Shown piece by piece: positions 9,503 to 56,850 of a stretch of DNA of 64,000 nt. The stretch spans positions 662 to 64,661 of the forward strand of contig JBMFRA010000008.1 of NCBI GenBank assembly GCA_049968315.1, in the 5' to 3' direction. A program made the translations under genes and the position numbers. Each line of letters begins with the position of its first letter. Position 1 is the stretch's first letter. The notes beneath the pieces are model-generated. The model ran no database searches. It was not told the origin of the DNA and saw nothing but the letters and a program-made list of their open reading frames with translations. This DNA is from Acidobacteriota bacterium. Lineage in GTDB: Bacteria > Acidobacteriota > UBA4820 > DSQY01.

Positions 9503-9598
9503 AGCGGTTTTTCTCTTCCGAAGCAATCGGGGCTCCCCTTTCCACCCCTTTCCTTTCCCGGCGATCGGGCGCATACTGAACCGGATGTGAAGGAAGGG

Positions 9599-9632: not shown

Positions 9633-9634
9633 CC

Positions 9635-10975: not shown

Positions 10976-10989
10976 GGAAAGGGACGTTC

Positions 10990-11140: not shown

Positions 11141-11183
11141 GCCCCTACTACGGCTACTGCCTCTATCTAAGGGGAGAGATCCT

Positions 11184-12307
11184 ATGGAGACGAGAATCGA
11201 AGCCCGGAGCCTCCTTTCCGAACTGACGCTGGCCCAGGGGATCGTCGAGTCCAAGGCCACCATTCCCATCCTGGCCAACTTTCTGCTGAGAACCACAGAA
11301 AACGCCTTGGAGATCGCCGCCTCGGACCTGGAGGTGACCCTCCGCTGCCGCTGCCCCGCGGAGATCCTGGAGGAGGGCGGCGTCACCGTTTCGGCGAAGA
11401 AGTTCTCCTCCCTCGTCCGGGCCTTTGCGGGCCTGGAGGGGCGGCTCTCCGTCAAGACGACGGCCCAGGGAAGGCTCTTCCTCCAGCCGGAGGGGGGGCG
11501 CCAGGAGTACCACCTGCAGACCCTTCCGCAAGAAGACTTCCCCACCCTTCTCTCCCCCGACGGGGGCAAGAGCCTGGAGCTCCCCATGGAGGCCCTCAAG
11601 CGGTGCATCTCCGAAGCCCTGGTCTCGGTGGGGGTGGAGGAGAGCCGCTTCTCGGTCCGGGGGGGGCTCCTGCTCCTGGAGAGCGGGCGCCTGGCCCTGG
11701 TTTCCACCGACTCCCACCGCCTGACCTACACCGAGTGGCTGGGCCCCGTGGGGGTGGAGGAGCCCATGCGCCTTCTCGTGCCCCGGAAGACCCTGACGGA
11801 GTTCCTCAAACTGGATGGGGAGGAGAAGGTCCGGGTCTCCTTCCGGGACAGCACCATCTTCCTGGAAACGGGAAACCGCCTTCTCTACAGCCGCCTCATG
11901 GACACCACCTTCCCGGCCTGGGAAAAGGTGATCCCCCAGGGTTCGGACAAGCTGGCGGTGATGAACCGGGCGGAACTCCAGGAGCGCCTGCGGCGGGTTT
12001 CCAACGTGGCGGAGTCCAAGACCCGGGCCGTGATCCTCTCCTTCGACCCGGCGGGGAGCCTCGAGGTCCTGGCGCGGAATGCCGAGACGGGGGACGAGGG
12101 GAGGGAGTACCTCTCCTGCGAGCGGTACGAGGGCGAGGCGGTCCAGCTCCTCTTCAACGCCGACTACATTCTGGACTTCCTGGGGGCCTGCTCCGAGGAG
12201 AAGGTCCGGATGGCCATGAAGGACGGGGAACACCAGGCCCTGCTGCAGCCGGTGCGCCCCGAGGGGGCTCCCCAGCACCAGTACGTCATCATGCCGTTGA
12301 GGTTTGA

Positions 12308-12311: not shown

Positions 12312-15804
<3,493 letters not shown>

Positions 15805-15853: not shown

Positions 15854-18382
15854 ATGAAAGAAGAGCCCCAACTCTTCGACCGCCCCCAGCCGGTGAACCT
15901 CGAGGAAGAGCTCAAGCGCAGCTACCTCGATTACGCCATGAGCGTCATCATCGGGCGGGCCCTTCCCGACGCCCGGGACGGCCTCAAGCCGGTCCACCGG
16001 CGGATCCTGTACGGCATGTACCTGGGGGGCAACCACTGGAACCGCCCCTACAAGAAGTCCGCCCGCATCGTGGGCGACGTCATGGGGAAGTTCCACCCCC
16101 ACGGCGACGCCGCCATCTACGACACCCTGGTCCGGATGGCCCAGGACTTCTCCATGCGCCACCCCCTGGTGGACGGACAGGGCAACTTCGGCTCCATCGA
16201 CGGCGACGCCCCGGCGGCCATGCGGTACACCGAGGTCCGCATGGCCAAGCTGGCCCACGCGCTGGTTTCGGATATCGAGAAGGCCACCGTGGACTTCGTC
16301 CCCAACTACGACGGGGAGGAGACGGAGCCGGTGGTCCTCCCCTGCCTCTTCCCCAACCTGCTGGTCAACGGGTCGGCGGGGATCGCCGTGGGGATGGCCA
16401 CCAACATCCCGCCCCACAACCTGGGGGAGGTGGCCGAGGCGGTGGTGGCCCTGGTGGAACGTCCGGAGATCACCACCCCCGAGCTCATGAAGATCCTGCC
16501 GGGGCCGGACTTCCCCACCGCGGGCCTCATCCTGGGGCGGGAGGGGATCCGCCAGGCGTACGAGACCGGCAAGGGACTGATCAAGGTCCGGGCCCGGGCC
16601 CACGTGGAAGAGCTGAAGAAGGACCGGGAGGCCATCGTCGTCACCGAGGTTCCCTACCAGGTCAACAAGGCGAACCTCATCGAGAAGATCGCCGGCCTGG
16701 TGAAGGAAAAGAAGATCACCGGGATCACCGACATCCGGGACGAGTCGAGCCGGGAGGGGATCCGGGTAGTTCTGGAGCTGGGCCGGGGGGAGATCGGCGA
16801 CATCGTCCTCAAGCAGCTCTACAAGTTCACGGAGATGGAGACGACCTTCGGCGTCCAGCTCCTGGCCATCTCCGGGGGCCAACCCAAAACCTTCACCCTG
16901 AAGGGGCTCCTCTCGGCCTTCGTGGACCACCGGAAGGAGGTCATCGTCCGGCGGACCCGCTTCGACCTGGAGCGGGCCAAGGAGCGGGCCCACGTCCTGG
17001 AAGGCCTCACCGTGGCCCTGGACCACCTGGACGCCGTCATCGCCCTGATCCGCGCCGCCAAGGACCCCGAAGAGGCCCGGGCCGGCCTCATGGAGAAGTT
17101 CTCCCTCTCGGAGATTCAGGCCAAGGCCATCCTGGACATGCGGCTCCAGCGGCTCACCGGACTCGAGCGGGACAAGATCCTGGCCGAGTACCGAGAGGTC
17201 CTCCAGAAGATCGCCGAGCTCTCGGAGATCCTGGGGAGCGAGGCACGGGTCAAGGCGATCCTCTGCGACGAGATGCGGGCCCTCAAGGCCGAGTTCGCCG
17301 ACGGCCGCCGGACCCAGATTGTGGACGACACGGGGGAGATCTCCATCGAAGAACTCATCGCCGACGAGGAGATGGTGATCACCGTCACCCACGGCGGCTA
17401 CATCAAGCGGACGGCGCTGGCCGAGTACCGGAGCCAGCACCGCGGCGGCAAGGGGCGTTCGGGGATGGCGCCCCGGGAGGACGACTTCGTCGAGCACCTC
17501 TTCGTCGCCATGAACCACGACCGCTTCCTCTTCTTCAGCAACCAGGGGAAAGTGTATGGCCTCAAGGTCTACGAGCTCCCCGAGGCGGGGACGGCGGCCC
17601 GGGGCCGGGCCCTGGTGAACCTCCTGGCCCTGGGGGCCGAGGAGAAGATCCTGGGCCTCCTCTCCGCCCGGGGCTGCTTCGACGCCAACCACTTCCTGGT
17701 GCTGGCCACCCGGCAAGGGCTCGTGAAGAAGACCCCCATGGACGAGTTCGAATCCATCCGGGCCAGCGGCAAGATCGCCATGACCTTCCGGGAGGGGGAC
17801 GAGCTGGTGGGGGCCGGCATTTCCGACGGTACCGGCCACATCTTCCTGGCCACCCGGGAAGGGCGGTGCATCACCTTCCCCGAGGAGGAGGTCCGCCCCA
17901 CCGGAAGGACGAGCCAGGGGGTCCAGGGGATCCGGCTCAAGGAGGGCGACGTGGTGGTGGAGATGGAGATCCTCCGGGGCACGGTGGTGGAGGCGGTGGA
18001 CGAAGAGGGTGCCGGCCGAGCCGTCTCGGGGGAGGGCGACATCCTCACCGTCACCGAAAAGGGCTTCGGCAAGCGGACGCCCCTGGCCCACTACCGCATC
18101 CAGCGCCGGGCCGGCACCGGAATCCTGAACCTCCTCATGACCCCCAAGAACGGTCCCGTGGTGGGCGGCCTCCACGTCCGGGAAGAGGACGAGATCGTGC
18201 TGGTCACCGCCCAGGGCCAGCTCATCCGCACCCCCGCCAAGGGCATCTCCCGCATCGGCCGCCGGACCCAGGGCCTCAAGGTCATCCACCTCGACGAGGG
18301 CGACAAGGTGGTGTCGGTGGCGAAGCACGCCCCCGAGGGGTCGGAGAACGGAAACGGAGAAGGCCCGCCGGAGGCCCGCTGA
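15854..18382 (+). CDS. gyrA: DNA gyrase subunit A
   Basis: The ~130-aa N-terminal segment (YAMSVIIGRALPDARDGLKPVHRRIL ... HPHGD ... AMRYTEVRMA) carries the active-site Tyr and QRDR region. C-terminal beta-pinwheel repeats follow. Confidence 0.97.
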   Translation: MKEEPQLFDRPQPVNLEEELKRSYLDYAMSVIIGRALPDARDGLKPVHRRILYGMYLGGNHWNRPYKKSARIVGDVMGKFHPHGDAAIYDTLVRMAQDFSMRHPLVDGQGNFGSIDGDAPAAMRYTEVRMAKLAHALVSDIEKATVDFVPNYDGEETEPVVLPCLFPNLLVNGSAGIAVGMATNIPPHNLGEVAEAVVALVERPEITTPELMKILPGPDFPTAGLILGREGIRQAYETGKGLIKVRARAHVEELKKDREAIVVTEVPYQVNKANLIEKIAGLVKEKKITGITDIRDESSREGIRVVLELGRGEIGDIVLKQLYKFTEMETTFGVQLLAISGGQPKTFTLKGLLSAFVDHRKEVIVRRTRFDLERAKERAHVLEGLTVALDHLDAVIALIRAAKDPEEARAGLMEKFSLSEIQAKAILDMRLQRLTGLERDKILAEYREVLQKIAELSEILGSEARVKAILCDEMRALKAEFADGRRTQIVDDTGEISIEELIADEEMVITVTHGGYIKRTALAEYRSQHRGGKGRSGMAPREDDFVEHLFVAMNHDRFLFFSNQGKVYGLKVYELPEAGTAARGRALVNLLALGAEEKILGLLSARGCFDANHFLVLATRQGLVKKTPMDEFESIRASGKIAMTFREGDELVGAGISDGTGHIFLATREGRCITFPEEEVRPTGRTSQGVQGIRLKEGDVVVEMEILRGTVVEAVDEEGAGRAVSGEGDILTVTEKGFGKRTPLAHYRIQRRAGTGILNLLMTPKNGPVVGGLHVREEDEIVLVTAQGQLIRTPAKGISRIGRRTQGLKVIHLDEGDKVVSVAKHAPEGSENGNGEGPPEAR

Positions 18383-22510: not shown

Positions 22511-23771
22511 GAACGGCCGGGTGGTGGACCCCGCCGGGGGGGTGGACGAGACCCTGGACCTCCTCCTGGAGGAGGGCCGCATCGCCGGGGTGGACAAGAA
22601 GATCTCCCTCAAGGGGGTGGAGGTCTTCGACGCCTCGGGCCTCGTCGTGGCGCCGGGGTTCATCGACCTGCACGTGCACCTCCGGGAGCCGGGGTACGAG
22701 CGGAAGGAGACCATCGCCACGGGGCTCCGGGCGGCGCTGGCCGGGGGCTTCACCGGCGTCTGCTGCATGCCCAACACCGACCCGGTGAACGACTGCGCCT
22801 CCGTCACCCGCTATATCCTGGAGCGTGCCCGGTCGGTCAGCCCCGTGGCCGTCTATCCCATCGGGGCCGTGACCAAGGGCTCCAAGGGGGAGGAACTGGC
22901 CCCCCTCTACGAGCTGAAGGAGGCGGGAGTCCGGGCGATCTCCGACGACGGGCAGCCCGTCCGCCGGGCCTCCATCCTCCGCCGTGCCTTGGAGTATGGG
23001 GGGTCCCTGGGCCTCCGGGTCATCGACCACTGCGAGGACCCCGATCTGGCCGAGGGGGGGGTGATGCACGAAGGGGAGGTCTCCACCCGCCTGGGGCTCA
23101 AAGGCATCCCCGCCGAGGCCGAGTCCATCCCGGTGCTCAGGGACATCGCCCTGGCCGCCATGACGGGGTACCCCGTCCACATCGCCCACGTGAGCACCCG
23201 CCTCGCCGTGGAGGCCATCCGGGCGGCCAAGAAGAAGCGGATCCCCGTCACGGCGGAAGCCACCCCCCACCACTTCACCCTGACCCACGAGGCGGTGGCC
23301 TCCTTCGACACCCGGTACAAGATGAACCCGCCCCTGAGAACCCCCGAGGACGTGGACGCCGTCATCGAGGGCCTGGCCGACGGGACCCTGGACGCCATTG
23401 CCACCGACCACGCCCCCCACACCTACGAGGAGAAGCTCCAGGAGTTCGACCGGGCCCCCAACGGGATCATCGGCCTGCAGACGGCGGTGCCCCTCGCGCT
23501 GGACCGGCTCGTGCGGACGGACCGGATCTCCCTCAAGCGGATGGTGGACGCCTTCTCCACGGCCCCCGCGCGGATCCTGGGCCTCGAGGGCAAGGGCCGC
23601 CTCGTCCCCGGCTACGACGCCGACCTGACCCTTCTCAACCTCAGGAAGGAATTCGTCTTCGAGGAGAAGGACGTCCTCAGCCTCAGCCGCAACAGCCCCT
23701 TCTTCGGCATGCGCCTCAAGGGGGCGGTGGCGGGGGTCTTCATCGCCGGGACCTTCTACGGCGCCCCGTGA
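22491..23771 (+). CDS. pyrC: Dihydroorotase (amidohydrolase superfamily, ATCase-associated type)
   Basis: [10 protein letters not shown] metal-binding motif and the MPNTDP and ATDHAPH motifs. The start overlaps the pyrB end. Confidence 0.9.
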
Positions 23772-38563: not shown

Positions 38564-38701
38564 ATGAAACGAACCTACCAGCCGAACCGGCACCGTCGCG
38601 CGAAAACCCACGGGTTCCGGGCCCGTATGGCCACCCGGGGAGGCCGAGAGGTGCTCGCCCGGCGGCGGGCGAAGGGGCGCTGGCGCCTGACGCCGGCGTG
38701 A
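38564..38701 (+). CDS. rpmH: 50S ribosomal protein L34
   Basis: 45-aa [48 protein letters not shown]. It is below the ORF-track size cut-off and was found by reading the sequence directly upstream of rnpA. Confidence 0.9.
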
Positions 38702-39054
38702 CCCTCCCGACGGGACCCTTCCGCAAAGAAGACCGGATCCGCTCCCGCGCCGAATACCGGGCCATCTATGCCGAGAGCCGTCCCCTCCACGTGGGGCGTC
38801 TGGTGGTGTACGCCGCACCGGGCGAAGGTCCCGTGCGGTTGGGGGTGACCGTTCCCCGGAAGGTGGGCGGGTCGGTGGTGCGAAACCGGGTCAAGCGGCT
38901 GATTCGGGAGGCCTTTCGGTTGGAGCGGGGGGCCTTCCCCCAGGGGACGCGGGTGGTGGTGAACGCCCGCCACTCCGCCGGGGCCCTGACCTTGGAAGAG
39001 GCACGGGAAAGCCTGCGCCGGGCGGCGGGGCTGCTCCAGGGGGGTTCGCCATGA
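38698..39054 (+). CDS. rnpA: Ribonuclease P protein component
   Basis: RNR motif region [26 protein letters not shown] start overlapping the rpmH stop. Confidence 0.92.
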
Positions 39055-39302
39055 GGAGGCTTGCCCTGTGGGCCATCCGGGCCTACCAGTGGACCCTCTC
39101 GCCCTATCTCGGGGGGGCCTGCCGGTACGTCCCCTCCTGCTCCCAGTACACCTACGAGGCGGTGGCCCGCTTCGGGCTGCTGCGGGGCCTCTGGCTGGGG
39201 CTGCGGCGCCTCAGCCGGTGCCACCCCTTCGCCGAAGGGGGGTACGACCCCTGTCCCGGCGGCCCCGGTCCTTCCGCTGGAACGGGAGGGGTCCTGGAGT
39301 AA
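39051..39302 (+). CDS. yidD: Membrane protein insertion efficiency factor YidD
   Basis: DUF37 signature with conserved Cys residues ([13 protein letters not shown] ... [11 protein letters not shown]). Confidence 0.9.
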
Positions 39303-39440
39303 GGGGGAAGGCCCCGCCGGCGCCGGGGGGAGACCGGGGAGGGGATGGGCCCTTCCCGGAGGAGAAGAGGAAGCGGGATGGCAGGTTGGCGGCGGGGCCC
39401 CCGCCGCCCACAGGGGCGCAGGAAAAGGCAGGAGGAAGCC

Positions 39441-41189
39441 ATGGAACAACTGGGACAGGAAGACCCGAAGAGCACCCAGCGCTTTCTGCTGGCCATGGTG
39501 GCCATGATGGCCGTCTTGGGCCTCTGGTCCCTCTTCATGGGGGGGCCCGCCGCGCCGCCCCCCGCGGCCCCCGAACCCCGCACCGCCGCCCCGGCGGAGA
39601 AGCCCGCCGCCGTGGAGCCGGCGCCGGCGCCCGGCGCCGGCGAGGCGGCGGTGGCCGATACGGAGGAGCGGCGGGTGATCCTGGAGAACGACGATCTCCT
39701 GGTGGAGGTGTCCAACCGGGGCGCCGTCCTGACCCGGGTGGTGCTGAAGAAGTACCGCATGCCCGGGGCCGACCCCGACGACCTCGTCTCGCCCCTGGCC
39801 CGGATCACCGGCCGCTACCCCCTGGCGGTGGAGACGGGGGATCCGGCCTTCGACCAGGCCGTGTCCAAGGCGCTGTTCCACGTGGAACGCAAAACGGGTC
39901 CCGCGGGGGAGCAGGTGGTGGAGCTGGCGTGGGCCGACGGGGCGGGCAACGCCCTTCGGAAGGTCCTGACGCTCCCCGCCGCGGGGTACCTCGCGGGCCT
40001 GGAGACCAGCGGCCGGAAGGGCGGCACCGTCCTCTCCCCCATTCCGCTGCGCTGGGGTCCCGGTTTCGGAACCCTCCAGAAGAGCCAGGCCAAGAACCGG
40101 TACTACCAGCAGGAGTACGTGGGACTCTTGGAGGGGACCTCCTTCCGTAAGGTCAAGCGGGCGGGGAAGGTGACGGGGGACCGCCCCCGGGAGGTGGAGG
40201 GCTTCGGGGAGAAGGCTCCGGTGGCCTGGGCCGCCATCAGCAACAACTACTTCGCCGCCGCCTTTTTGCCCGAGGGGACCCTGCCGCGGGTGAAGGTGGT
40301 GACGGAGGCCCTCTCTCCCGAGCTGCAGAAGGTGCACCCCGCCGAAAACGACGTGACCCTGGTGGTGGCCTTCCCCGGCCGGGGGCGTCTCTTCATGGGA
40401 CCCAAGCAGTGGGGCCTCCTGGCGGGCGTGGCGCCCCAGTTCAACCGCCTCACCGACTGGGGGTGGCTCACCCCCATCTGCGGCGCCCTCCTCTGGGGCC
40501 TGAAGTCCCTGTACCGGTGGGTGGGCAACTACGGCATCGCCATCATCCTCATCACGCTGGTCATCAAGCTGGCCTTCTACCCCCTCACCCAGGGCAGCAT
40601 GGTGAAGATGAAGCAGATGGGCGACGCCATGAAGCGGCTCAAGCCCCAGATCGACCGGATCAAGGCCAAGTACAAGAAGATGGGCCTGGACATGGCCACC
40701 CGCCAAAAGATGAACGAGGAGATGATGGCCCTCTACCAGAAGGAGGGCATCAACCCCCTGGGCCAGATGAGCGGGTGCCTCCCCCTCCTCCTCCAGATGC
40801 CCATCTTCTTCGCCCTCTTCGAGCTCCTGCCGCGGGCCATCGAGCTCCGGGGAGCGCCCTTCTTCGGCTGGATCCAGGACCTCTCGGTTCCGGACCCCTA
40901 CTACATCACCCCCATCCTCATGGGGGTCTCCATGATCGCCTCCACCCGCATGACCGGCTCCCAGGGACTGGAGGGGGCGCAGAAGGTCATGCTCTGGTTC
41001 ATGCCCCTCATGTTCACCTGGTTCTGCCTCTGGGCCCCGGCGGGGCTCACCCTCTACTGGCTCGCCAACAACCTGCTGACCATGGGCCAGCAGGCCCTCA
41101 TCAACCGGCAGGCGGCGGCCAGGGCGGCCGAAGCCGAGAAGGGGCGGCGGTCCACCCCCAAGGGCCCTTCCCGGCCTTCCCGTGGTTGA
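39441..41189 (+). CDS. yidC: Membrane protein insertase YidC
   Basis: Start MEQLGQE at 39441 with an AGGAGG RBS. N-terminal TM, periplasmic domain and the conserved C-terminal 5-TM core (GCLPLLLQMPIFFALF). Confidence 0.93.
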   Translation: MEQLGQEDPKSTQRFLLAMVAMMAVLGLWSLFMGGPAAPPPAAPEPRTAAPAEKPAAVEPAPAPGAGEAAVADTEERRVILENDDLLVEVSNRGAVLTRVVLKKYRMPGADPDDLVSPLARITGRYPLAVETGDPAFDQAVSKALFHVERKTGPAGEQVVELAWADGAGNALRKVLTLPAAGYLAGLETSGRKGGTVLSPIPLRWGPGFGTLQKSQAKNRYYQQEYVGLLEGTSFRKVKRAGKVTGDRPREVEGFGEKAPVAWAAISNNYFAAAFLPEGTLPRVKVVTEALSPELQKVHPAENDVTLVVAFPGRGRLFMGPKQWGLLAGVAPQFNRLTDWGWLTPICGALLWGLKSLYRWVGNYGIAIILITLVIKLAFYPLTQGSMVKMKQMGDAMKRLKPQIDRIKAKYKKMGLDMATRQKMNEEMMALYQKEGINPLGQMSGCLPLLLQMPIFFALFELLPRAIELRGAPFFGWIQDLSVPDPYYITPILMGVSMIASTRMTGSQGLEGAQKVMLWFMPLMFTWFCLWAPAGLTLYWLANNLLTMGQQALINRQAAARAAEAEKGRRSTPKGPSRPSRG

Positions 41190-42534
41190 AGCCGGAGGAA
41201 CCCTGGTGGCGGAGGCCACCCCGCCCGGTCGGGGCGGCCTCCGGGTGGTTCGGGTGAGCGGCCCCCTGGCCGCCCCCATCCTCCAGCGGCACTTCCGCCC
41301 CGCGGGGCCCCGCTCCCCCTGGGAGGCTCCCCGCAGGTTGTGCGCCGGGGACGTTCTGTCGGCGGACGGCCGGCTCCTGGACCGGGCGCTGGCGGTCTTC
41401 CTGCGGGCACCCCGCTCCTTTACGGGGGAGGACACGGCGGAGTTCCACCTCCACGGCTCCGGCGGCGTCGTGGAGGCGGTGGTCGCCCTGTGCCTCGAAG
41501 CGGGGTGCCGGCGGGCGGCCCCCGGAGAGTTCTCCTGGCGGGCCTTCCTCAACGGCAAGCTGGGCCTCCTGGAAGCCGAGGCCCTGGACGGATTGGCCGC
41601 CGCCTCCACCCGGGAGGCGGCCCAGCGGGCCGCCGCCGTCCTGGCCGGTGACCTGAGGCGCAAGCTCGAGGGCCTTCGGGAGGGGATTCTGGACCTCCAG
41701 GCACGGTGGGAGGCCCAGGTGGACTTCCCGGAGGACGCCGGGGAGGGGGCCCCCGAAGAGGAGCGGGCGCTCCTGGGCCGCCTCGTCGCGGAAGCCGATG
41801 CCCTGGACCGGTCGGGGCAGGCCCTTCCGCGCCTGCGGGAGGGCTGGTCCGTGGCCCTGGCGGGCCCCCCCAACTCGGGAAAGTCTTCCCTCTTCAACGC
41901 CCTCTTGAACCGCGAGCGCGCCCTGGTCAGCCCCCACCCGGGGACCACCCGGGACGTGTTGGAGGAGACCCTGGAGGTGGACGGCCTTCCCCTGGTGCTC
42001 CGGGACACGGCGGGCCTTCGGCAGGAGCCGGGGGAGGAGGTGGAGGCCCTGGGTATGGAGGTGGGGCTGCGGGCCGCCGCCACCGCCGATGCCGTCCTTT
42101 TCGTCTACGACGGGGCCCGGGGGTGGGACGGCGAGGCCCAACGGGCCCTCCGGATCCTCCCGGCCCCGCCCCGCTGGATCGCCGGCAACAAGGGCGACCT
42201 CTTTGTGGGTCCGGTCCCTCCGGGGCACCTTCGGCTCAGCGCCCGGACGGGGGAGGGGCTCGCCGCGCTGGTCCGGGAGATGGGGCGCTGGCTCCGGGGG
42301 CAGCTCCCTCGGGTGGAGGCGGGACCGGTCTCCCTGCGGCAGGCGGAGGCGGTAGGGCGCCTTCGGCGGGCCCTCGGGGAGGCGGAGGGCGACCTGGCGG
42401 GGGGGGCGGGGATCGAGGTGGCCGCCGACGCGTTGGCCCGCGCCCGGCGGGCCGTGGAGGAGGCCCTCTTCGGGGAGGGAAGACCCGACGACCTCTACGG
42501 GCGGATCTTTTCCCGCTTCTGCATTGGAAAGTGA
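41182..42534 (+). CDS. mnmE: tRNA modification GTPase MnmE (TrmE)
   Basis: G-domain GPPNSGKSSLFNALL ... DTAGLR and the C-terminal CIGK motif. Confidence 0.93.
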   Translation: MVEAGGTLVAEATPPGRGGLRVVRVSGPLAAPILQRHFRPAGPRSPWEAPRRLCAGDVLSADGRLLDRALAVFLRAPRSFTGEDTAEFHLHGSGGVVEAVVALCLEAGCRRAAPGEFSWRAFLNGKLGLLEAEALDGLAAASTREAAQRAAAVLAGDLRRKLEGLREGILDLQARWEAQVDFPEDAGEGAPEEERALLGRLVAEADALDRSGQALPRLREGWSVALAGPPNSGKSSLFNALLNRERALVSPHPGTTRDVLEETLEVDGLPLVLRDTAGLRQEPGEEVEALGMEVGLRAAATADAVLFVYDGARGWDGEAQRALRILPAPPRWIAGNKGDLFVGPVPPGHLRLSARTGEGLAALVREMGRWLRGQLPRVEAGPVSLRQAEAVGRLRRALGEAEGDLAGGAGIEVAADALARARRAVEEALFGEGRPDDLYGRIFSRFCIGK

Positions 42535-42618: not shown

Positions 42619-44451
42619 ATGGCGAAGGAGACCTGCGACGCGGTGGTGGTGGGCGGCGGGCACGCGGGGGCGGAGGCGGCCCGCGTGCTGGCCCTCAAGG
42701 GCCTCGATACCGTCCTGGTCACCGATTCCCTGAAGGCCGTGGGGCGCATGTCCTGCAACCCCTCCATCGGCGGGCTGGGGAAGGGGCACCTCGTGCGGGA
42801 GCTGGACGCCCTGGGGGGCCTCATGGCCCGGGCGGCCGACGGGACCGGCATCCACTTCCGGCTGCTGAACGCCAGCAAGGGGCCGGCGGTCCAGGGGCTG
42901 CGAAGCCAGAACGACCGGGAGGCCTACGCCCGGGCGGTGGCGGAGGCCCTTGAGAAGACGGCGGGGCTCAGGCTCCGGGAGGGCCGGGTCCGGGACCTCC
43001 TCCTGTCGGGGGGGAGGGTTCACGGCGTGGGCCTGGAAGACGGCACGGAGCTCCGGGCCCGGGTGGTGGTGGTCACGGCGGGGACCTTTCTGGGCGGCCT
43101 GCTCCACGTGGGGGAAGAGCGGACCGCCGGGGGCCGCGTGGGGGAGTTCGCCGCCGAAGACCTCTCCCGTTCCCTCCGGGCGGCGGGGCTTCCCCTGATT
43201 CGGCTCAAGACGGGAACTCCCCCCCGGCTCCACCGCCGCTCCATCCAATGGGAGCGCACCCTCCCCCAGCCGGGGGACCCGGCCCCCGAGCCCTTTTCCC
43301 TCCTCTCCGAGCCCTTTCCGGCGCTCCCGCAGGTTCCCTGCCACCTGACCCGGACCACGGAGGAGACGCGCCGCATCATCCTGGCCAACCTCCACCGGTC
43401 GCCCCTCTTCTCTGGGGCCATCCAGGGGCGGGGCCCCCGGTACTGCCCCTCCATCGAGGACAAGGTGGTGCGCTTTCCCCACAACGAGAGCCACCAGGTC
43501 TTCCTGGAGCCCGACGGCCTCGGCAGCGAGGAGGTCTACCCCAACGGAATCTCCACGTCCCTCCCGCGGGACGTCCAGGAGGCGGTGGTCCGCTCCATCC
43601 CCGGCCTGGAGGAGGCCCGCATCGTCCGGTACGGCTACGCCGTGGAGTACGACGCGGTGGATCCGACGGCGCTCCGGCTGACCCTGGAAGCCAAGGGCGT
43701 GGCGGGCCTCTACCTGGCGGGGCAGGTGGTGGGGACCACGGGGTACGAGGAGGCGGCGGCGCTGGGGTTCTGGGCGGGCCTCAACGCCGCCAGGGCCCTC
43801 CGGGGGGAGGAGCCCTTCGTGCTGGGGCGGGAGGAGGCCTACCTGGGGGTGATGGTGGACGACCTGGTGACCCGGGGCGTTACCGAGCCTTACCGCATGC
43901 TCACCTCCCGGGCGGAGTACCGGCTCCTCCTGGACCGCCACAGCGCCTACCGGCGGCTCCTGCCCCGTACCGCCGCCGACGGCCTTTGCCCTCCCGGGGA
44001 CCGGAAGCGCCTCCAGGAACGGGAGCGGCGGGTGGCGGCGGCGCGGCGCACCCTGGAGGAGACCCGGGTGGAGGTGGGGGGGGAGGTCCTTTCCCTGGCC
44101 CGGATCCTCTCCCGTCCCCAAGTCGGGATGGAGGACCTGCCGGTCCACCCGCCGGAGCTTCGGGCCCTCGACCGGTGGGAGGTCCTCTACGTGGAGTCGG
44201 AGGTGAAGGGGGAGGGCTACCGGGAGCGGGCCCGGGCCGAGGCCCGGCGCCTCCTGGCGGCGCGGCGGACCCGCATCCCCCCCGGTTTCGACTTCGGGGC
44301 CCTGCCGGGCCTCAGCCGGGAGGTGCGGGAAGTGCTGCAGCGGGTGGCCCCCGCCAACCTGGACCAGGCCTCGCGGATCCCGGGGATGACGCCGGCGGCG
44401 CTCCTCCGGCTCCACTACGCCCTGGACCGCGGAGGCTCCCATGGAGAATGA
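42619..44451 (+). CDS. mnmG: tRNA uridine 5-carboxymethylaminomethyl modification enzyme MnmG (GidA)
   Basis: FAD-binding [15 protein letters not shown] and the PSIGG motif; 610 aa. Confidence 0.96.
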
Positions 44452-45019
44452 CCCGCGCCTCGAGGCCTACCTGGATCTCCTCTTCGCCTGGAACCGCGCG
44501 GCGGGCCTCACCGCCTTCCGCAGCCGCCGGGAGGTCCTGGAGCGGGGGGTCGCCCCCTCGCGGCTGGCCCTTCCCTTTCTCCCGGAGGAAGGGCGGGTCC
44601 TGGACGTCGGATCGGGGGGCGGCATCCCCGCCCTCCCCCTCGCCCTGGCCCGCCCGCGCCTTTCGTGGGTGCTGGCCGAACCGGCGCCGGCCAAGGCGGT
44701 CTTCCTGGAGGAGGTGGCCCGGCGGCTGAACCTGGCCTGGGAGGTCCGGGCCCGTCCGGCGGAGGAGGTCCTCCGGAGCGGGGAGCGCTGGCGTGCGGCG
44801 ACCCTCCGCGGGATCTTCCCCCGAAAGGGGACCTTCCGGCGGCTGGCCTCGGCGCTGGAGCCGGGGGGGGTCCTGCTGGTGTGGACCGGCGGGGCGCGCC
44901 TCGAAGCCTGCCGGGAAATCTTCGGCGGATTGGGCCTTGCGGCGGAGGAGCACCCCTGCCCGGGGGCCGGGGTGGTCCTTTTGGCCGGCCGTGTTCCACG
45001 TGGAACATCCGGAGGCTGA
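44441..45019 (+). CDS. rsmG: 16S rRNA (guanine527-N7)-methyltransferase RsmG (GidB)
   Basis: SAM motif [15 protein letters not shown] and the typical N-terminus ([12 protein letters not shown]). Confidence 0.9.
44992..45007. other. parS: parS centromere-like site (TGTTCCACGTGGAACA, perfect 16-bp palindrome)
   Basis: Matches the parS consensus tGTTnCACGTGaAACa at 15 of 16 positions. It lies inside the last codons of rsmG, 100 nt upstream of parA. Confidence 0.8.
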
Positions 45020-45107
45020 GAGCCCGGCGGGAGGGCCGGGGCGGGATTCGACCCCGGCGTCTTTCCCTCGGCCTTCCGGTATGGCACAATGCGCCGGGAG
45101 GAGCGCC

Positions 45108-45869
45108 GTGGGAACCATCATCGCCGTCGCCAACCAAAAGGGCGGGGTCGGAAAGACCACCACCGTCATCAACTTGGGAGCCTCCTTGGCCGCCGCGGAA
45201 AAGCGGATCCTTCTGGTGGACTTCGACCCCCAATCCAACTGTACGTCGGGGCTGGGGGTGTCCTCCCCCGACGGCCGGAACGTCTACGGGTGCCTCTCGG
45301 GCTCCGCCGGCCCGGAGGAAGTGCTAGTGTCCTGCGGCCTGCCCAACCTCCAGCTCCTTCCCGGAGCCGTCTCCCTGGCGGGGGCCGAGGTAGAACTGGC
45401 CGGGGTTCCCCAGCGGGAGTTCGTCCTCCGGAACCTCCTGGGGCCCCTCAAGGACCGCTACGACTACATCCTGGTGGACTGCCCCCCCTCCCTGGGCCTG
45501 CTCACCCTCAACGCCCTGGTGGCGGCGGACGGGGTGCTCATCCCCATCCAGGCGGAGTTCTTCGCCATGGAGGGGGTTTCGCTCCTCCTGCGTACCCTGG
45601 AACGGGTCCGCGAGTCCCTCAACCCCGAGCTGGCCGTCACCGGCGTCCTCCTCACCATGGTGGACGAGCGGACCAACCTCGCCCGCCAGGTCTCCGCCGA
45701 GGTCCAGCGCTTCTTCGGGGGGCGGGTCTTCCGGGCCTCCATCCCCCGCAACGTCAAGCTCGCCGAGGCCCCCTCCTTCGGAAAGCCGGCCCTCCTGTAC
45801 GATGTGGCCTCCCGGGGGGCCCAGGCCTACCTGCACGTGGCCAAGGAGTTCCTCTCCCATGAACCCTAA
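45108..45869 (+). CDS. parA: Chromosome partitioning ATPase ParA (Soj)
   Basis: Deviant Walker A ANQKGGVGKTTT. GTG start at 45108, 5 nt after AGGAGG; an upstream in-frame ATG at 45081 is an alternative. Confidence 0.93.
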   Translation: MGTIIAVANQKGGVGKTTTVINLGASLAAAEKRILLVDFDPQSNCTSGLGVSSPDGRNVYGCLSGSAGPEEVLVSCGLPNLQLLPGAVSLAGAEVELAGVPQREFVLRNLLGPLKDRYDYILVDCPPSLGLLTLNALVAADGVLIPIQAEFFAMEGVSLLLRTLERVRESLNPELAVTGVLLTMVDERTNLARQVSAEVQRFFGGRVFRASIPRNVKLAEAPSFGKPALLYDVASRGAQAYLHVAKEFLSHEP

Positions 45870-46704
45870 GAACGTCCTGGGACGGGGCCTGGACGCCCTC
45901 ATCGGCGCGCCGGGTCCCGAAGCCAAGCGGGTCCTCGAGGTGGAGATCCACCGCCTGAAGCCCAACCCCCGGCAGCCCCGCACCGCCTTCGATTCGGAGG
46001 CCCTGGACGAGCTGGCGCGCTCCATCGCCGAGAACGGGATCCTCCAGCCCATCCTGGTGCGCCCCGCCGACGGGGGCTACGAGATCATCGCCGGGGAGCG
46101 CCGGTGGCGGGCGGCCCAGCAGGCCGGCCTCCACCGTGTCCCTGTCCTGGTCCGGGAGGCCGCCGATCCCCAGTTGCTGGAACTGGCGCTGGTGGAAAAC
46201 CTCCAGAGGGCGGACCTCAACCCCGTGGAGGAGGCCCGGGCCTACCGGCTCCTGGTGGAGGATCTGGGGCTGACCCAGGAGGAGGTGGCCCGAAAGGTGG
46301 GGAAGGACCGGGCTACGGTGGCCAACGTGCTTCGGCTCCTCCACCTCCCCGAGCCGGCCCTCCGGGCCCTGGAGGAAGGGCGCCTCACCGTGGGCCACGC
46401 CAAGGCCCTCCTCTCCCGGCGGCGCCGGGAGGAGCAGGCCGCCCTCCTGGAGGCCATCCTTCGCAGGGGCCTTTCGGTCCGGGAGGCGGAGGCCTTCCAG
46501 CTCCCCGCCAAGGCGGCCGCCCCTGAGCGGAGAAGCGACCCGGACACCGCCGCGGCGGAGAAGACCCTGAGCCGCCACCTGGGGCTTCCCGTCACCATCC
46601 GGCGCCGGGGGAAGGGCGGGCGCCTGGAGGTGGCCTTCCGCAACGAAGAGGAGTTGCAGGGGCTCTACGAGCGGCTTCTCGGCGAGAGGAGGAGGACCCC
46701 ATGA
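45859..46704 (+). CDS. parB: Chromosome partitioning protein ParB (Spo0J)
   Basis: ParB box [10 protein letters not shown] and an HTH region. ATG at 45859 overlapping the parA end. Confidence 0.93.
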
Positions 46705-47108
46705 TGGGAAAGAAGGTCTCCGACGCCGTCCAGGTGGGCGGCATGCTGGGAGAAGGGGTAACGGTGGAGGGGACGCTGACCTTCACCCAGACCTTCCGCG
46801 TGGACGGAGAGTTCAAAGGGAAGATCCTCCGCTCCGACCGCCTGGTGGTGGGGGAGAAGGGCAAGGTCTCCGGGGAGGTGGAGGTCAATTCCCTGGTGGT
46901 CTACGGCCGCCTGGAGGGCAAGGCCCTGGTGAAGGGGCCGGTGGAGGTCCACCCCAAAGGCCGGGTGGTGGGCGAGCTGACCCTCACGGCGCCCCTCCTG
47001 ACGGTGATGGACGGAGGGTTCCTCGAGGGGACCCTGCGGCTCCAGGAGAAGGGTGCTCCGCCGCCGGAGAAGCCCGAGAAGAAGGCCGCCGGGGAGGAAC
47101 CCCGGTGA
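46701..47108 (+). CDS. Bactofilin (DUF583 polymer-forming cytoskeletal protein)
   Basis: Repetitive beta-helical G-x-V/L pattern typical of the bactofilin domain. Start overlaps the parB stop. Confidence 0.8.
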   Translation: MMGKKVSDAVQVGGMLGEGVTVEGTLTFTQTFRVDGEFKGKILRSDRLVVGEKGKVSGEVEVNSLVVYGRLEGKALVKGPVEVHPKGRVVGELTLTAPLLTVMDGGFLEGTLRLQEKGAPPPEKPEKKAAGEEPR

Positions 47109-48400: not shown

Positions 48401-50227
48401 TCACTCCACCGTCACGCTCTTGGCCAGGTTGCGGGGTTGGTCCACGTCGGCTCCCCGCGTGACCGCCACGTGGTAGGCCAGCAACTGCAGCGGGACGACC
48501 GTCAGGATGGGCATGAAGAGCGGGTCGGTCTCCGGCACCAGGAAGACCTCGTCGGCCAGGGTCCTCAGGCGGGCGTCGGCCTCGTTGCAGACGGCCAGGA
48601 CCTTGCCCTCCCGGGCCTTCACCTCCTCCAGGTTGGAGAGCAGCTTCCCGTAGACCTCGTCCCGGGGGGCCACGGCCACCACGGGGAGGTTTTCGTCGAT
48701 GAGGGCGATGGGGCCGTGCTTCATCTCCCCCGAGGGGTACCCCTCGGCGTGGATGTAGGAGATCTCCTTGAGCTTGAGGGCCCCCTCCAGGGCGATGGGG
48801 TACTGGATGCCCCGCCCAAGGTAGAGAAAGTCCTTGTACCGGTGGTATTTGCGGGCGGCCTCCTCCACCTGGGGTTCCAGGGCCAGGGCCTGCTCCATGA
48901 GGGAGGAGATCTGGTTCAGGGACGCCAGGCGCCGGCGCAGGGCCTCGGCGGAGAGGGTCCCCCGGACCTCCCCCAGGTGGAGGGCCAGAAGGGCCAGGGC
49001 GGTGAGCTGGGTGGTGAAGGCCTTGGTGGAGGCCACGCTGATCTCCGGTCCCGCGTGGGTGTAGAGGGTCCCCTCCGCCTCCCGGGTGAGCATGCTCCCC
49101 ACCACGTTGCAGACGGCCAGCGTGTGGGCCCCCTTGGCCTTGGCCTCCCGCAGGGCGGCGAGGGTGTCCGCCGTCTCCCCCGACTGGGAGATGAAGATGC
49201 AGAGCGTCCGGGAATCCACCAGGGGGTCCCGGTAGCGGAACTCCGATCCGTAGTCCACCTCGGCGTGGAGGCGGGCCAGTCCCTCGATCATGTACCGGGC
49301 GCAGAGGGCGGCGTGCCAGGAGGTGCCGCAGGCCACCAGGACCACCCGCTCCACCGAAGCGAGGACCTCCCGGCCGACCTCCACCTCCTCCAGGCAGACC
49401 TGGCCGCGGTCCAGGGAGATCCTTCCCACCAAGGTGTCGGCCACCGCCCGCGGCTGCTCGAAGATCTCCTTCTGCATGAAGTGCTTGAACCCCGCCTTCT
49501 CCGCCTGGATCGGGTCCCAGGTGATGCGGGTGGGGGCCTTGGTCCTCGGGCGGCCGGAGAAGTCGGTGAAGCGGGCGGAGCCGGCCTCCACCACCGCCAT
49601 CTCGCCGTCGTCCAGAAAGACCATCTCCCGGGTGTGGGCCAGGATGGCGGGGATGTCGCTGGCCACGAAGTTCTCCCCGTTCCCCAGCCCCACCACCAGC
49701 GGGGGGCCCTGGCGGGCGGCCACGATGCGGAAGGGGTTCCGGGTGCTCACGGCGGCGAGGGCGAAGATTCCCGTCAGCCGGCGGGCCACGGCCCCCATGG
49801 CCGCCTCCAGGTCGTCCCCCTGCTCTTCCAGGAGGTGGGCCACCACCTCCGTGTCGGTCTCCGTTCGGAAGCGGTGGCCGCGGGCCAGGAGTTCTTCCTT
49901 GAGCGCGAGGTAGTTCTCGATGATCCCGTTGTGGACCACCACCACCTCCCCCTTGCAGTCGGTGTGGGGGTGGGCGTTCTCCTCGGTGGGGCGCCCGTGG
50001 GTGGCCCACCGGGTGTGGCCCAGGCCGTAGACGCCCTTGAGGGGGTTGAGGCGCAGCTTCTCTTCCAGGTGGAGGATCTTCCCGGCGGCCCGCTCCGTCC
50101 GCAGGGCCGAACCGTCGAAGACCGCCAGCCCCGCCGAATCGTACCCCCGGTACTCCAGCCTTCTGAGCCCCTCCATCAGGATGGGGACGGGGTCCTTGGG
50201 CCCGATGTAACCCACGATGCCGCACAT
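48401..50227 (-). CDS. glmS: Glutamine--fructose-6-phosphate aminotransferase (isomerizing)
   Basis: N-terminal nucleophile MCGIVGY, two SIS domains, C-terminal VTVE; 608 aa. Confidence 0.97.
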   Translation of the reverse strand: MCGIVGYIGPKDPVPILMEGLRRLEYRGYDSAGLAVFDGSALRTERAAGKILHLEEKLRLNPLKGVYGLGHTRWATHGRPTEENAHPHTDCKGEVVVVHNGIIENYLALKEELLARGHRFRTETDTEVVAHLLEEQGDDLEAAMGAVARRLTGIFALAAVSTRNPFRIVAARQGPPLVVGLGNGENFVASDIPAILAHTREMVFLDDGEMAVVEAGSARFTDFSGRPRTKAPTRITWDPIQAEKAGFKHFMQKEIFEQPRAVADTLVGRISLDRGQVCLEEVEVGREVLASVERVVLVACGTSWHAALCARYMIEGLARLHAEVDYGSEFRYRDPLVDSRTLCIFISQSGETADTLAALREAKAKGAHTLAVCNVVGSMLTREAEGTLYTHAGPEISVASTKAFTTQLTALALLALHLGEVRGTLSAEALRRRLASLNQISSLMEQALALEPQVEEAARKYHRYKDFLYLGRGIQYPIALEGALKLKEISYIHAEGYPSGEMKHGPIALIDENLPVVAVAPRDEVYGKLLSNLEEVKAREGKVLAVCNEADARLRTLADEVFLVPETDPLFMPILTVVPLQLLAYHVAVTRGADVDQPRNLAKSVTVE

Positions 50228-53428: not shown

Positions 53429-54145
53429 TCAAGCCTCCCGGGGGCCGAAGAGGGACGTACCCAGGCGCACCAGGGTTGCGCCCTCCTCCACGGCCACCTC
53501 GAAGTCGTGGCTCATCCCCATGGAGAGCCATCGGAAGGCCTCCCGTTGGGGGTGAAGGCCGAGGATCTCCTCGAAAAGGGACCGAAGGCGGCGGAAGTGG
53601 GGGCGGGAGGCTTCCGGATCGGGATCGTAGGGGGGGACTCCCAGAAGCCCCGTCAGGCTCAGGTTGGGGAGGGAAAGGACCAACCGGGCCAAGGAGACGG
53701 CCTCCCCGGGGGCGACGCCCCCCTTCTGGGACTCCTCGCCGAGGTTCACCTCCAGCATGACCTCCCGCTGGAGCCGCTCCTCGCCGGCGATCCGGGAGAG
53801 CCGGAGGGCCAGCTCCTCCGAATCCACGGTGTCCAGGCTGTGGAAGAGGCGCAGCGCCCGGCGGGCCTTGTTGGCCTGCAGGCGCCCGATGAAGTGGAAG
53901 CGTCGGGAACGGAAGAAGTCCGGCCCCAGGGCCCGGGCGTGGCCCTCCCCCTCCTGGACCCGGTTTTCTCCGAAACAATCGACCCCCGCCCGGGCGGCCG
54001 CCTCCACTTGGGCGGCGGTCCGTCCCTTCACGGCGGCCATGAGGACCACCTCTCCGGGGGCCCTCCCGGCCCGGCGGGCCGCCGCCTCCAGGGCCGCCTT
54101 CGCATCCCCGACCCGCTCCTCGATGGAGTTTCCGCCGCGAACCAT
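53429..54145 (-). CDS. yggS: PLP homeostasis protein YggS/YlmE (alanine-racemase-fold PLP enzyme)
   Basis: Motifs KGRTAAQVEAA, FGENRVQE, HFIGRLQANK and SMGMSHDFEVA. Confidence 0.88.
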   Translation of the reverse strand: MVRGGNSIEERVGDAKAALEAAARRAGRAPGEVVLMAAVKGRTAAQVEAAARAGVDCFGENRVQEGEGHARALGPDFFRSRRFHFIGRLQANKARRALRLFHSLDTVDSEELALRLSRIAGEERLQREVMLEVNLGEESQKGGVAPGEAVSLARLVLSLPNLSLTGLLGVPPYDPDPEASRPHFRRLRSLFEEILGLHPQREAFRWLSMGMSHDFEVAVEEGATLVRLGTSLFGPREA

Positions 54146-54214
54146 GGCCCTACGGTAGGCAAGGCCCCGCCGGTTGTCAAGGAAGGGGGTTGGAGGGGGG
54201 TCCCGGGCGGGGGT

Positions 54215-55030
54215 ATGCTGGAACGGGAGGCGACGTTGGCCGAAGGTTCCACCCTGCGCTACGAGGGAATTCCCCTGGCGGACTTTCTGGCGGCCCTGGG
54301 CCTCCGGGAGAGGCCCGGCCTTCTCCCCGCACCGTCCGCCCTTAAGGAGGCCCTCCTCTCGGCCTCCTGGAGCCCCGTCCCCGGCGAGGCCTCGCCCCTG
54401 TCCCTCTACCTCTTGGAGGAACGGGACGCCCTGACCCAGACGCGGGAGGCCTACCTCCTGGTGAAGGGGGAGGGGCGCTACGCCCGCCCGCTCAGGGAGT
54501 TGGTCCTCCGCCTCGGCCGCTTTTTCCGGGGCCGGAACCTTCCCGTCCTCTTCCGGATCGATCCCCGCTACGGCCTCCTGGTGGGAAGCGCCCTGGAACC
54601 GCTGGACCCCGCCGTCAAATGGGACCGCCCCAGGGTCTACGCCGCCCTGGCCTTCACCGCCGACCCCGCCTCTCCCTCCCTCGCCCTCCTGGAGTACGTT
54701 CCCGCCTCCCAGCAGGCGGCCTACCGGGCGCTCTTCGTCAAGTACAACGGGGTGGAACCGGCCCGCCCGGGGCTTCTGACCCAGGTCTTTCGGCGGTGGA
54801 AGGGTTCCCGGGCCGAAGGAGAGGCAGGTCCCGGAGGGCTCACCTACGGGATGTTGGCCACCCTGGGGGCCTTTCTCCAGCGGGAGAGCGTGGAGAAGGC
54901 TTCCCTTTCGCTGATCTTCAAGGGGATTTCCCCGTCGGAGGCCGCCGGCTTCGTCCTGGACCCCGGACGGGCCACCTTCTACCCCTCCGGCTACGACCGT
55001 TTCTTCGCCTCCCTGGGGGAGCTGGCGTGA
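54215..55030 (+). CDS. Hypothetical protein (271 aa)
   Basis: In-frame C-terminal portion of a long ORF; ATG at 54215 sits 70 nt from the divergent yggS start. No recognizable domain. Confidence 0.45.
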   Translation: MLEREATLAEGSTLRYEGIPLADFLAALGLRERPGLLPAPSALKEALLSASWSPVPGEASPLSLYLLEERDALTQTREAYLLVKGEGRYARPLRELVLRLGRFFRGRNLPVLFRIDPRYGLLVGSALEPLDPAVKWDRPRVYAALAFTADPASPSLALLEYVPASQQAAYRALFVKYNGVEPARPGLLTQVFRRWKGSRAEGEAGPGGLTYGMLATLGAFLQRESVEKASLSLIFKGISPSEAAGFVLDPGRATFYPSGYDRFFASLGELA

Positions 55031-55659
55031 GGACCGCCCGCCTCGTGACGGCCCTCGGCCTGCTGGTGGCCTCCGCCGCCGCCCACGGCATGGAGCTGGT
55101 GGTCTTCCGGTCGGAGCGCTCCCTGGTGGTGGAACGGGTGGAACGGGACGAGGGGCTCCTGGTTCTCGTCCTTCCCGGCGGCGGAAGGCTTGGGGTCCCG
55201 GAGGAAGAGATCCTCCAGCGCTTCGAGGGGTACGTCCCCCCGCCCGAGGAGCGGGAACCGGAGAAGCCCCTCCCGCCCTCCCTGCCCTACCGGGAGATCA
55301 TCGCCCGGGCCTGCCAGGAAAACCAGGTGGACTGGAAGCTGGTGGCGGCCCTCATCCGGGTGGAATCCAACTTCAACCCCCGGGCCGTCTCCCCCAAGGG
55401 CGCCCAGGGGCTCATGCAGCTCATGCCTTCCACCCAGGCCGACCTGGGGGTGAAGGACCCCTTCTCGCCGGAGGAGAACATCCAGGGCGGCGTCCGCTAC
55501 CTGAGGTGGCTCCTCGATGCCTTTCAGGGAGACCTGGAGCTCACCCTGGCGGCCTACAACGCCGGAATCCGCAGGGTCCAGGCGATCCAGGCCGTACCAC
55601 CCATCCCCGAGACCCAGCGCTACGTCGCCCGGATCCTGGCGCTCTACCCCACCCTCTGA
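55027..55659 (+). CDS. Lytic transglycosylase (SLT domain), secreted
   Basis: GTG start with a signal-like RTARLVTALGLLVASAAAHG. SLT motifs ESNFNPRAVSPKGAQGLMQLMPST and AYNAG. Confidence 0.8.
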   Translation: MRTARLVTALGLLVASAAAHGMELVVFRSERSLVVERVERDEGLLVLVLPGGGRLGVPEEEILQRFEGYVPPPEEREPEKPLPPSLPYREIIARACQENQVDWKLVAALIRVESNFNPRAVSPKGAQGLMQLMPSTQADLGVKDPFSPEENIQGGVRYLRWLLDAFQGDLELTLAAYNAGIRRVQAIQAVPPIPETQRYVARILALYPTL

Positions 55660-55665
55660 CCGCCC

Positions 55666-56850
55666 ATGGCCCCAAGCCCCCCCCGGGTTCTCCACCTCAA
55701 CACGGAGCGGTCCTACCGGGGGGGGGAGGTACAGACCCTGGGCCTCCTCCGGGAGCTGGCCCGCCGGGGTTACGCACCGCTCCTCGCCGCCCCCCCGGGG
55801 GCGCCCCTGGCCCGGCTGGCGGCGGAGGGGGGGATCCCCGTCCTCCCCTGGTCCCTCCGGGGGGAGGCCGACCCCGTTGCCGCCTTCAGGATCCTCCGGT
55901 GGGCCCGGCGGGAGGGGGTGGCCCTCCTCCACGCCCACACGGCCCACGCCCTCACCCCGGCCCTGGTGGCGGGGTTTTGGGGGGGCCTTCCGGTGGTGGC
56001 CACCCGCCGGGTCTCCTTCCCCCTCCGGGGCCCCCTCTCCCGCTGGAAGTACCGGAGGGCCTCGGCGGTGGTGGCGGTGAGCGGCGCCATCGCCGGGCAA
56101 CTGGCGGCGGCGGGGGTCCCGGCGGACCGCCTTCGGGTGATCCACAGCGCGGTGGATCTCGGGCGGCTCCTCCCGCTGCCGTCCCGGGAGGAGGCGCGCC
56201 GGCGCCTGGGACTCTCGGGGGGGGACCGGGTCTTGGGGGTGGCGGCGGCCCTGGCCCCCCACAAGGGCCACGCCGTCCTCTTCGAGGCCCTGGCCGGCCT
56301 GTCGGAGGTGCAACCGCACCTGGTGGTCCTGCTGGCGGGAGAGGGCTCCCTGCGGCGGGAGCTGGAGGAACAGGCGCGGCGGCGGGGCCTGCCGGTCCGC
56401 TTTCTCGGCCACCTCCAAGACCTTCGAGACTTCTTCGCCTCCCTGGACCTCCTGGTCCTGCCCTCCCTTTCCGGCGAGGGGTCCCCCGGGGCGGTCAAGG
56501 AGGCGGCGGCCTCGGGGGTGCCGGTGGTGGCCACCCGGGTGGGGGGCACGGAGGAGGTCCTTCGGGAGGGCCGGGAGGCCCTCCTCGTCCCCCCTGGGGA
56601 CTCCCGGGCCCTGGCCCGGGCCATCCTCCGCCTCCTCGAGGACCGGGAGCTGGCCGTGAGCCTCGCGGCCCGGGCCCGGGAGCGCTCCCTGGACTTCGGA
56701 ATGGACCGGATGGCCGAGGCCTACCTCCTCCTCTACGGCCGCCTTACGGGGCAGGGGGCCCGTTCCGCCGCCGTTGGGGCCTCCACCGACAGTGGGGGAA
56801 GAGCTTCCGCAGGTAGCGGCGGAGAAGGGCCGGTTCCACCGGAAGGGTGA
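55666..56850 (+). CDS. Glycosyltransferase family 4 (GT-B, group 1)
   Basis: The C-terminal domain carries an EGSPGAVKEAAASGVPVVAT-type motif. The 3' end overlaps the convergent regulator by about 100 nt, so the true stop may be earlier. Confidence 0.75.
   Translation: MAPSPPRVLHLNTERSYRGGEVQTLGLLRELARRGYAPLLAAPPGAPLARLAAEGGIPVLPWSLRGEADPVAAFRILRWARREGVALLHAHTAHALTPALVAGFWGGLPVVATRRVSFPLRGPLSRWKYRRASAVVAVSGAIAGQLAAAGVPADRLRVIHSAVDLGRLLPLPSREEARRRLGLSGGDRVLGVAAALAPHKGHAVLFEALAGLSEVQPHLVVLLAGEGSLRRELEEQARRRGLPVRFLGHLQDLRDFFASLDLLVLPSLSGEGSPGAVKEAAASGVPVVATRVGGTEEVLREGREALLVPPGDSRALARAILRLLEDRELAVSLAARARERSLDFGMDRMAEAYLLLYGRLTGQGARSAAVGASTDSGGRASAGSGGEGPVPPEG

Follow-up and report, generated by a model that had tools for sequence, protein, structure and literature searches.

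A palindrome in the tail of rsmG

What is a perfect 16-bp palindrome doing in the last codons of rsmG, just in front of the partition genes parA and parB? The palindrome, TGTTCCACGTGGAACA, lies at exactly 44992-45007 of the stretch of Acidobacteriota DNA analyzed here (64,000 nucleotides, hereafter the window). An earlier note on this DNA took it to be a parS site onto which ParB is loaded, and its account of the position is accurate. The palindrome lies within the final codons of rsmG (44441-45019, + strand), where it occupies codons 184-189 of 192 and is read R-VPRGT-S. The palindrome stops 12 nt short of the final base of the rsmG stop codon, and the gap between the palindrome and the GTG of parA at 45108 is exactly 100 nt.

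The host gene matches the Pfam family PF02527 (GidB) with 82.7 bits against a gathering score of 27, and its product is what we take to be the 16S rRNA m7G527 methyltransferase. With the NCBIfam model TIGR00138 (E=8.6e-21) it scores 74 bits, which is below the equivalog cutoff of 99.5. This sub-cutoff score touches the naming of the host gene and not the parS site. The profile match to RsmG stops at residue 152, and the palindrome is therefore located in an unaligned C-terminal tail.

How close is this sequence to a parS site? As the earlier note stated, TGTTCCACGTGGAACA differs from TGTTTCACGTGAAACA at two symmetric positions, 5 (T>C) and 12 (A>G). The 14/16 match behind the description "near-consensus" is therefore real. 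However, the label should be toned down because positions 5 and 12 are N in the published consensus, TGTTNCACGTGAAACA, and the variant is unremarkable: parS sites with C/G at these positions are known to function. The general consensus is written with position 5 already recognized as variable (PMC7022226). TGTTCCACGTGGAACA is the sequence of parS2 and parS3 of Pseudomonas aeruginosa, described there as a "perfect palindrome," and in that species segregation both requires and can rely on one site from the origin-proximal cluster (PMC4368675). The table of a review lists TGTTCCACGTGGAACA for P. putida parS, and TGTTCCACGTGGAACG for Myxococcus xanthus, which has 22 sites (PMC7022226).

Could such a match arise by chance? 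The window has a G+C content of 70% (A 0.154, C 0.351, G 0.354, T 0.141). With this base composition about 3e-6 exact copies of TGTTCCACGTGGAACA are expected in 64 kb (3.4e-6), and a first-order Markov model gives 2.5e-6. The expectation rises to 2e-4 in 64 kb when one mismatch is allowed. With up to three mismatches there are two matches in the 64 kb against 0.13 expected, and none of 100 shuffles had that many. According to the earlier note, numerous matches of the same quality at a distance from the origin would count against a ParB loading site. What is found within 64 kb is just these two sites at up to three mismatches, and both fall within 5.2 kb upstream of parA.

It is worth being clear about which property of the palindrome is non-random. 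Palindromy alone is not significant because the window carries eight perfect 16-bp palindromes, against roughly 3.4 estimated from composition. Nor is the CACGTG core special on its own, because its 18 occurrences in the window are close to the composition-based estimate of roughly 20. The non-random signal is the identity to parS together with its recurrence and its conservation.

The set of eight contains one other recurring pattern. The palindromes at 23162-23177 (GACGGGGTACCCCGTC) and 48731-48746 (CGAGGGGTACCCCTCG) have a common core, GGGGTACCCC. Palindromes with this core number two against 0.23 expected, two copies being reached in 3/100 shuffles, and both lie in coding regions.

A second site inside yidC

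The second match went unmentioned in the earlier note. It lies at 39874-39889 inside yidC (39345-41189, + strand; NCBIfam YidC models, E=2e-87), where it is read L-FHVE-R. Its sequence, TGTTCCACGTGGAACG, is a 15/16 match and equals the M. xanthus consensus. It is 5.1 kb upstream of the first site (5,118 bp apart). In what follows the palindrome in rsmG is called site 1 and the one in yidC site 2.

The closest relative of this bacterium in our sample, L001, has its yidC site at homologous codons (ALFHVEQ), and there the site is a perfect palindrome. The YidC proteins of other Acidobacteriota have LFVASRE, LFLASTE, FFQVRRH or LFASRRE at the same position, and their genes have no site there. FHVE is thus variable among acidobacterial YidC proteins, and therefore it is the DNA that is conserved at site 2, not the peptide.

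Gene order and distance to the origin

The earlier note placed the palindrome near the replication origin, and the gene map of the window bears this out. dnaA, the origin marker, is at 9635-10975 on the + strand (TIGR00362, 548 bits, above cutoff). Profile searches place dnaN (to 12311), then recF, gyrB (13405-15804) and gyrA (15854-18382) after it, so that dnaA-dnaN-recF-gyrB-gyrA spans 9.6-18.4 kb of the same window. The distance from the dnaA start is 30.2 kb for site 2 and 35.4 kb for site 1.

The sites themselves lie in a second group of genes. Upstream of it is an ATP synthase operon, recognized by profile searches, which ends at 38536. It is followed by rpmH (about 38564-38701, + strand), an unlisted open reading frame of 45 codons that was found by translation and is directly upstream of rnpA, the GTG start of which it overlaps. 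The remaining genes, again from profile searches, are rnpA (38698-39054), yidD (39051-39302), yidC, mnmE (41182-42534) and mnmG (42619-44451). With rpmH the classic array rpmH-rnpA-yidD-yidC-mnmE-mnmG-rsmG-parAB is complete. The array from rpmH to parAB is 28 kb from dnaA here, and the ATP synthase operon lies between.

Some features of the dnaA region deserve mention in their own right. The window contains seven DnaA-box-like 9-mers with at most one mismatch to TTATCCACA, against 1.7 expected. They cluster at 9599-9631, just upstream of dnaA, and at 10944-11132, at the dnaA/dnaN junction. The coding signal, measured as third-codon-position G+C, is lost at about 9300-9635, just upstream of dnaA. 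The clusters are candidate oriC or dnaA-promoter regions.

On the other side of the sites, parB is followed by a bactofilin gene (46701-47108, + strand; Pfam PF04519, E=4e-22) that starts at the parB stop codon. A bactofilin homologue comes right after parB in most of the Acidobacteriota relatives (L001, L003, L004, L013, L018, L019, L023, and L030); the one in L001, at 10891-11235, is 73% identical to that of the window. M. xanthus has the same synteny of parAB and a bactofilin gene (bacM), and BacM is reported not to act on ParABS (PMC5703909).

ParA and ParB

A ParB loading site calls for a ParB protein. The gene parA (45108-45869, + strand) encodes a Soj-type deviant Walker A ATPase of 253 aa with the motif KGGVGKTT. 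Its most likely start is the GTG at 45108, with a Shine-Dalgarno sequence, GGGAGGAG, at 45096-45103. The protein matches Pfam AAA_31 (E=3e-60) and CbiA, and its best NCBIfam match is ParA_partition. The 3' end of parA overlaps the start of parB (45859-46704, + strand). The likely start codon of parB is the ATG at 45859, within a reading frame that opens at 45802.

All three expected domains of ParB (ParB_N, HTH_ParB, and ParB_C) score above their Pfam cutoffs, and the protein passes the NCBIfam ParB domain model TIGR00180 with 193.9 bits. Its best matches among solved structures, over about 220 residues, are Thermus Spo0J (1VZ0, E=4e-63) and M. xanthus ParB (7BNK, E=3e-54); it also aligns to Caulobacter ParB (6T1F) and Helicobacter pylori ParB (4UMK). 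The CTPase motif GERRWRA and the ENLQR motif are intact and can be aligned with those of Thermus and Myxococcus ParB. At the level of motifs, ParB has the CTP-binding site and arginine patch with which it would be predicted to close as a clamp and spread.

The DNA specificity of ParB can be read from a few residues. Two of them, R173 and G201 (Caulobacter numbering), make contact with parS and do not vary among ParB orthologues, and the corresponding specificity set of the related protein Noc is Q173/K179/K184/R201 (Jalal et al., PMC7383237). By register with the Caulobacter motif, the window ParB has R173/V179/H184/G201, and the ParB orthologues of the related loci are RxxG wherever scoring was possible. 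A Noc/NBS system was considered and rejected. The residues of the window ParB are R/V/H/G, its 228.8 bits with the NCBIfam Noc model are below the cutoff of 315, and the DNA has the parS core CACGTG and not the CCCGGG of the NBS site, ATTTCCCGGGAAAT.

One DNA-contacting position departs from the usual pattern. At position 204 (Caulobacter numbering) the window ParB has K (GHAKAL) in place of the usual R (GHARAL). K204 is common to L001 and to two Thermoanaerobaculia metagenome-assembled genomes (MAGs), L018 and L023. The change from R to K is conservative and probably harmless. As a separate observation, the locus of L018 has no site at up to one mismatch, and L023 has none just upstream of parA and one on the 5' side of rsmG.

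Conservation in relatives

Is the palindrome kept in other genomes and, if so, is it kept as DNA or as the peptide it encodes? Relatives were collected by a ParB scan with one genome per species, which gave 80 loci. The closest, L001, from the 414-kb contig CAVYWK010000022.1, is an uncultured Acidobacteriota MAG with a ParB that is 71% identical. The next are Acidobacteriota, Thermoanaerobaculia and Vicinamibacteria MAGs, with ParB identities of about 50%. Each locus was scanned for TGTTYCACGTGRAACA with at most one mismatch, and the sites were placed relative to rsmG and parA.

In 10 of the 14 Acidobacteriota-type loci there is a site no more than 320 nt upstream of parA, nearly always of the C/G variant. 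The exact 16-mer just upstream of parA is found again in the Acidobacteriota L002, L008, L011, L013, L019, and L058, and also in L074, which is labelled a Proteobacteria MAG in its record. The relation of these sites to the reading frame differs from locus to locus. In L001, L013, and L019, as well as in the Rokubacteria MAGs L012, L015, and L032, the site belongs to the rsmG tail and is read as VPRGT. Fully intergenic sites are present in L002, L008, L011, L019, L058, L030, and L074. In the Acidobacteriota MAG L003 the parS sequence TGTTCCACGTGAAACG (9228-9243) straddles the end of rsmG and supplies its TGA stop. The site is thus found inside the rsmG tail, over the stop codon or between genes, and therefore selection acts on the DNA.

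The sites of the Alphaproteobacteria in the sample are of the T/A form and lie at the 5' rather than the 3' end of rsmG. One locus labelled as belonging to this class is different. The 4-kb contig of L014 (CAXMOH010000134.1, labelled uncultured Hyphomicrobium) departs from the other Alphaproteobacteria in that its parS is of the C/G form and is read as VPRGT. On either side of this parS the sequence is almost the same as in L013, a Vicinamibacteria locus, and the short contig has probably been mis-binned.

Alignment of the sites leads to the same point. When 18 relatives are anchored on the site upstream of parA, the columns conserved in at least 80% of them are TGTT.CACGTG.AACA and nothing else; the flanks contribute none. 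A direct comparison with L001 shows site 1 to be 100% conserved and inside a 25-nt identical island, with 90-nt flanks that are 40 and 26% identical (ungapped). The RsmG proteins of the window and L001 are only 52% identical. L001 nevertheless retains both sites at homologous places. Because the flanks are unconserved and the YidC position is variable, selection is on the DNA sequence and not on the peptides.

Comparison with known parS systems

Among the systems most like the present one are those of P. aeruginosa and P. putida. They share with it the identical 16 bp, the origin-proximal position close to parAB and, as far as the 64 kb of the window show, a small number of high-affinity sites. 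However, their hosts are Gammaproteobacteria rather than Acidobacteriota, and here the sites are inside the rsmG tail and yidC. M. xanthus resembles the window in other ways: the yidC site is its consensus, its G+C content is high, its ParB (7BNK) is similar and a bactofilin gene directly follows parAB. In contrast, it has about 22 clustered sites and there are two here, within 64 kb. The canonical parS of Bacillus subtilis, Thermus thermophilus, Caulobacter crescentus and Corynebacterium is TGTTNCACGTGAAACA. These systems have the 16-bp inverted repeat with its invariant CACGTG core and the TGTT/AACA arms in common with the window, as well as the same ParB family and origin-proximal sites that are frequently within coding sequences. 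They differ at positions 5 and 12, a symmetric pair that is T/A in these systems and C/G in the window.

P. aeruginosa additionally uses many GTTCCAC half-sites. Does the window have these as well? At first glance it seems so, with 21 GTTCCAC heptamers in the window against 6.7 in dinucleotide shuffles. However, this excess disappears under a codon-preserving shuffle. The copies outside parS number 10 against 8.2 ± 2.8 after codons were shuffled within called genes, and 156 of 500 shuffles had at least as many. GTTCCAC also ranks only 27th of 420 heptamers with the same composition. The excess is an artefact of codon usage (TTC-CAC, GTG-GAA), and enrichment of half-sites was rejected. One further pair of such words is at 55129-55144 (GTGGAACGGGTGGAACGGG), where two GTGGAAC half-site words form a direct repeat 9 bp apart within 54145-55666, a region without a confidently called gene. 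This is probably a chance or coding repeat.

What else could the palindrome be?

The simplest alternative is that the palindrome has no function as DNA and is there by coding chance, or because VPRGT in RsmG and FHVE in YidC are constrained as peptides. The eight perfect 16-bp palindromes of the window and the constant VPRGT frame of the sites within rsmG could be taken in this way. However, the expectation for an exact match is about 3e-6, the same 16-mer is intergenic or across a stop codon in other Acidobacteriota, and the 16-mer is invariant while its flanks are unconserved. The peptide in RsmG is part of the C-terminal tail, which the profile alignment does not reach, and peptide constraint on the yidC site fails because YidC homologues do not conserve FHVE. 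This explanation is highly improbable and has effectively already been refuted. Even harder to credit is an RNA element, that is, a hairpin that terminates or stabilizes the rsmG mRNA at its 3' end. In the minimum free energy fold of 44975-45110 the two arms of the palindrome do pair, as a 6-bp stem with a 4-nt loop that forms part of a longer stem, but the energy of this fold is unexceptional (z = -1.45), with 21/200 shuffles folding at least as well. No T-run comes after the palindrome, and the sole terminator-like match (44956-44975) is upstream of it. Furthermore, site 2 lies mid-gene in yidC, and across relatives the exact parS letters alone are conserved, with no compensatory variation.

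Might the site instead be mainly a transcriptional operator, with which ParB or another regulator autoregulates parAB and which has no role as a centromere? Binding and spreading of chromosomal ParB affects neighboring genes in P. aeruginosa and other species. Site 1 is also well placed for this role, between the tail of rsmG and the start of parA, where a parAB promoter could be, and many relatives have theirs 10-100 nt away from the start of parA. Nevertheless, an operator of this kind is very unlikely. There is no sigma-70-like promoter match at 44700-45300, which is weak evidence at 70% G+C. More tellingly, the yidC site is 5.1 kb upstream and the alphaproteobacterial sites are at the 5' end of rsmG, in both cases away from the parA promoter, and elsewhere the same 16 bp have been proven to be a centromere (PMC4368675). 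Any regulation would most plausibly be an extra to the centromere role.

A probable chromosomal centromere

Both palindromes are best explained as parS centromere sites, of which this chromosome would very probably have at least two. The sequence of the palindrome, its non-randomness, the cognate parA and parB genes with the right motifs, the proximity of dnaA and the conservation at the level of DNA are all observed. The proposal that the palindrome is a ParB loading site is supported in that every computational test that could be made with the window and the related loci was positive, and binding by the window ParB is predicted from homology. As a feature, the palindrome is already known: a textbook parS in a standard genomic position, with a sequence identical to that of an experimentally characterized site.

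How would the sites work? From homology and established ParABS biology we infer ParB binding, spreading, segregation and SMC loading at this locus. The helix-turn-helix domain of a ParB dimer would recognize each 16-bp site, with R173 and G201 among the parS contacts. Once bound to parS, ParB would take up CTP, which would close its N-terminal gate, and the closed clamp would then slide onto the flanking DNA. Nucleation, CTP-gated clamp closure and sliding have been described as a mechanism (PMC8367383). Since the clamps would slide off parS, a few sites could load many of them over roughly 10-20 kb around rsmG-parAB-yidC. The resulting partition complex would stimulate the ATPase activity of nucleoid-bound ParA, and newly replicated origin regions would be pulled apart. 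The partition complex would probably load SMC as well.

Loading of ParB may also modulate parAB transcription, because site 1 is 100 nt upstream of parA. Such regulation would be an addition to the centromere role and not an alternative to it. A more elaborate scenario has three parts: in this acidobacterial lineage the whole centromere may consist of just two coding-embedded parS sites 5.1 kb apart, the position in the rsmG tail may be old, with parS dictating the C-terminal peptide of RsmG, and ParB loading may couple parAB expression to the occupancy of the centromere. The parS sites inside rsmG are always read VPRGT, in Acidobacteriota and Rokubacteria MAGs. The combination stays within known ParABS principles, and as a package it is a doubtful if conceivable one.

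The identification has little significance beyond annotation, and it opens no unresolved question. It might be of some practical use, for example as a target for ParB-based locus tagging or to anchor MAG assemblies at the origin. For the organism itself, the site would mark the centromere and, with dnaA 30-35 kb off, the origin region of the chromosome of an uncultured Acidobacteriota bacterium. For the phylum, it shows that Acidobacteriota use the same C/G variant of parS as Pseudomonas and Myxococcus.
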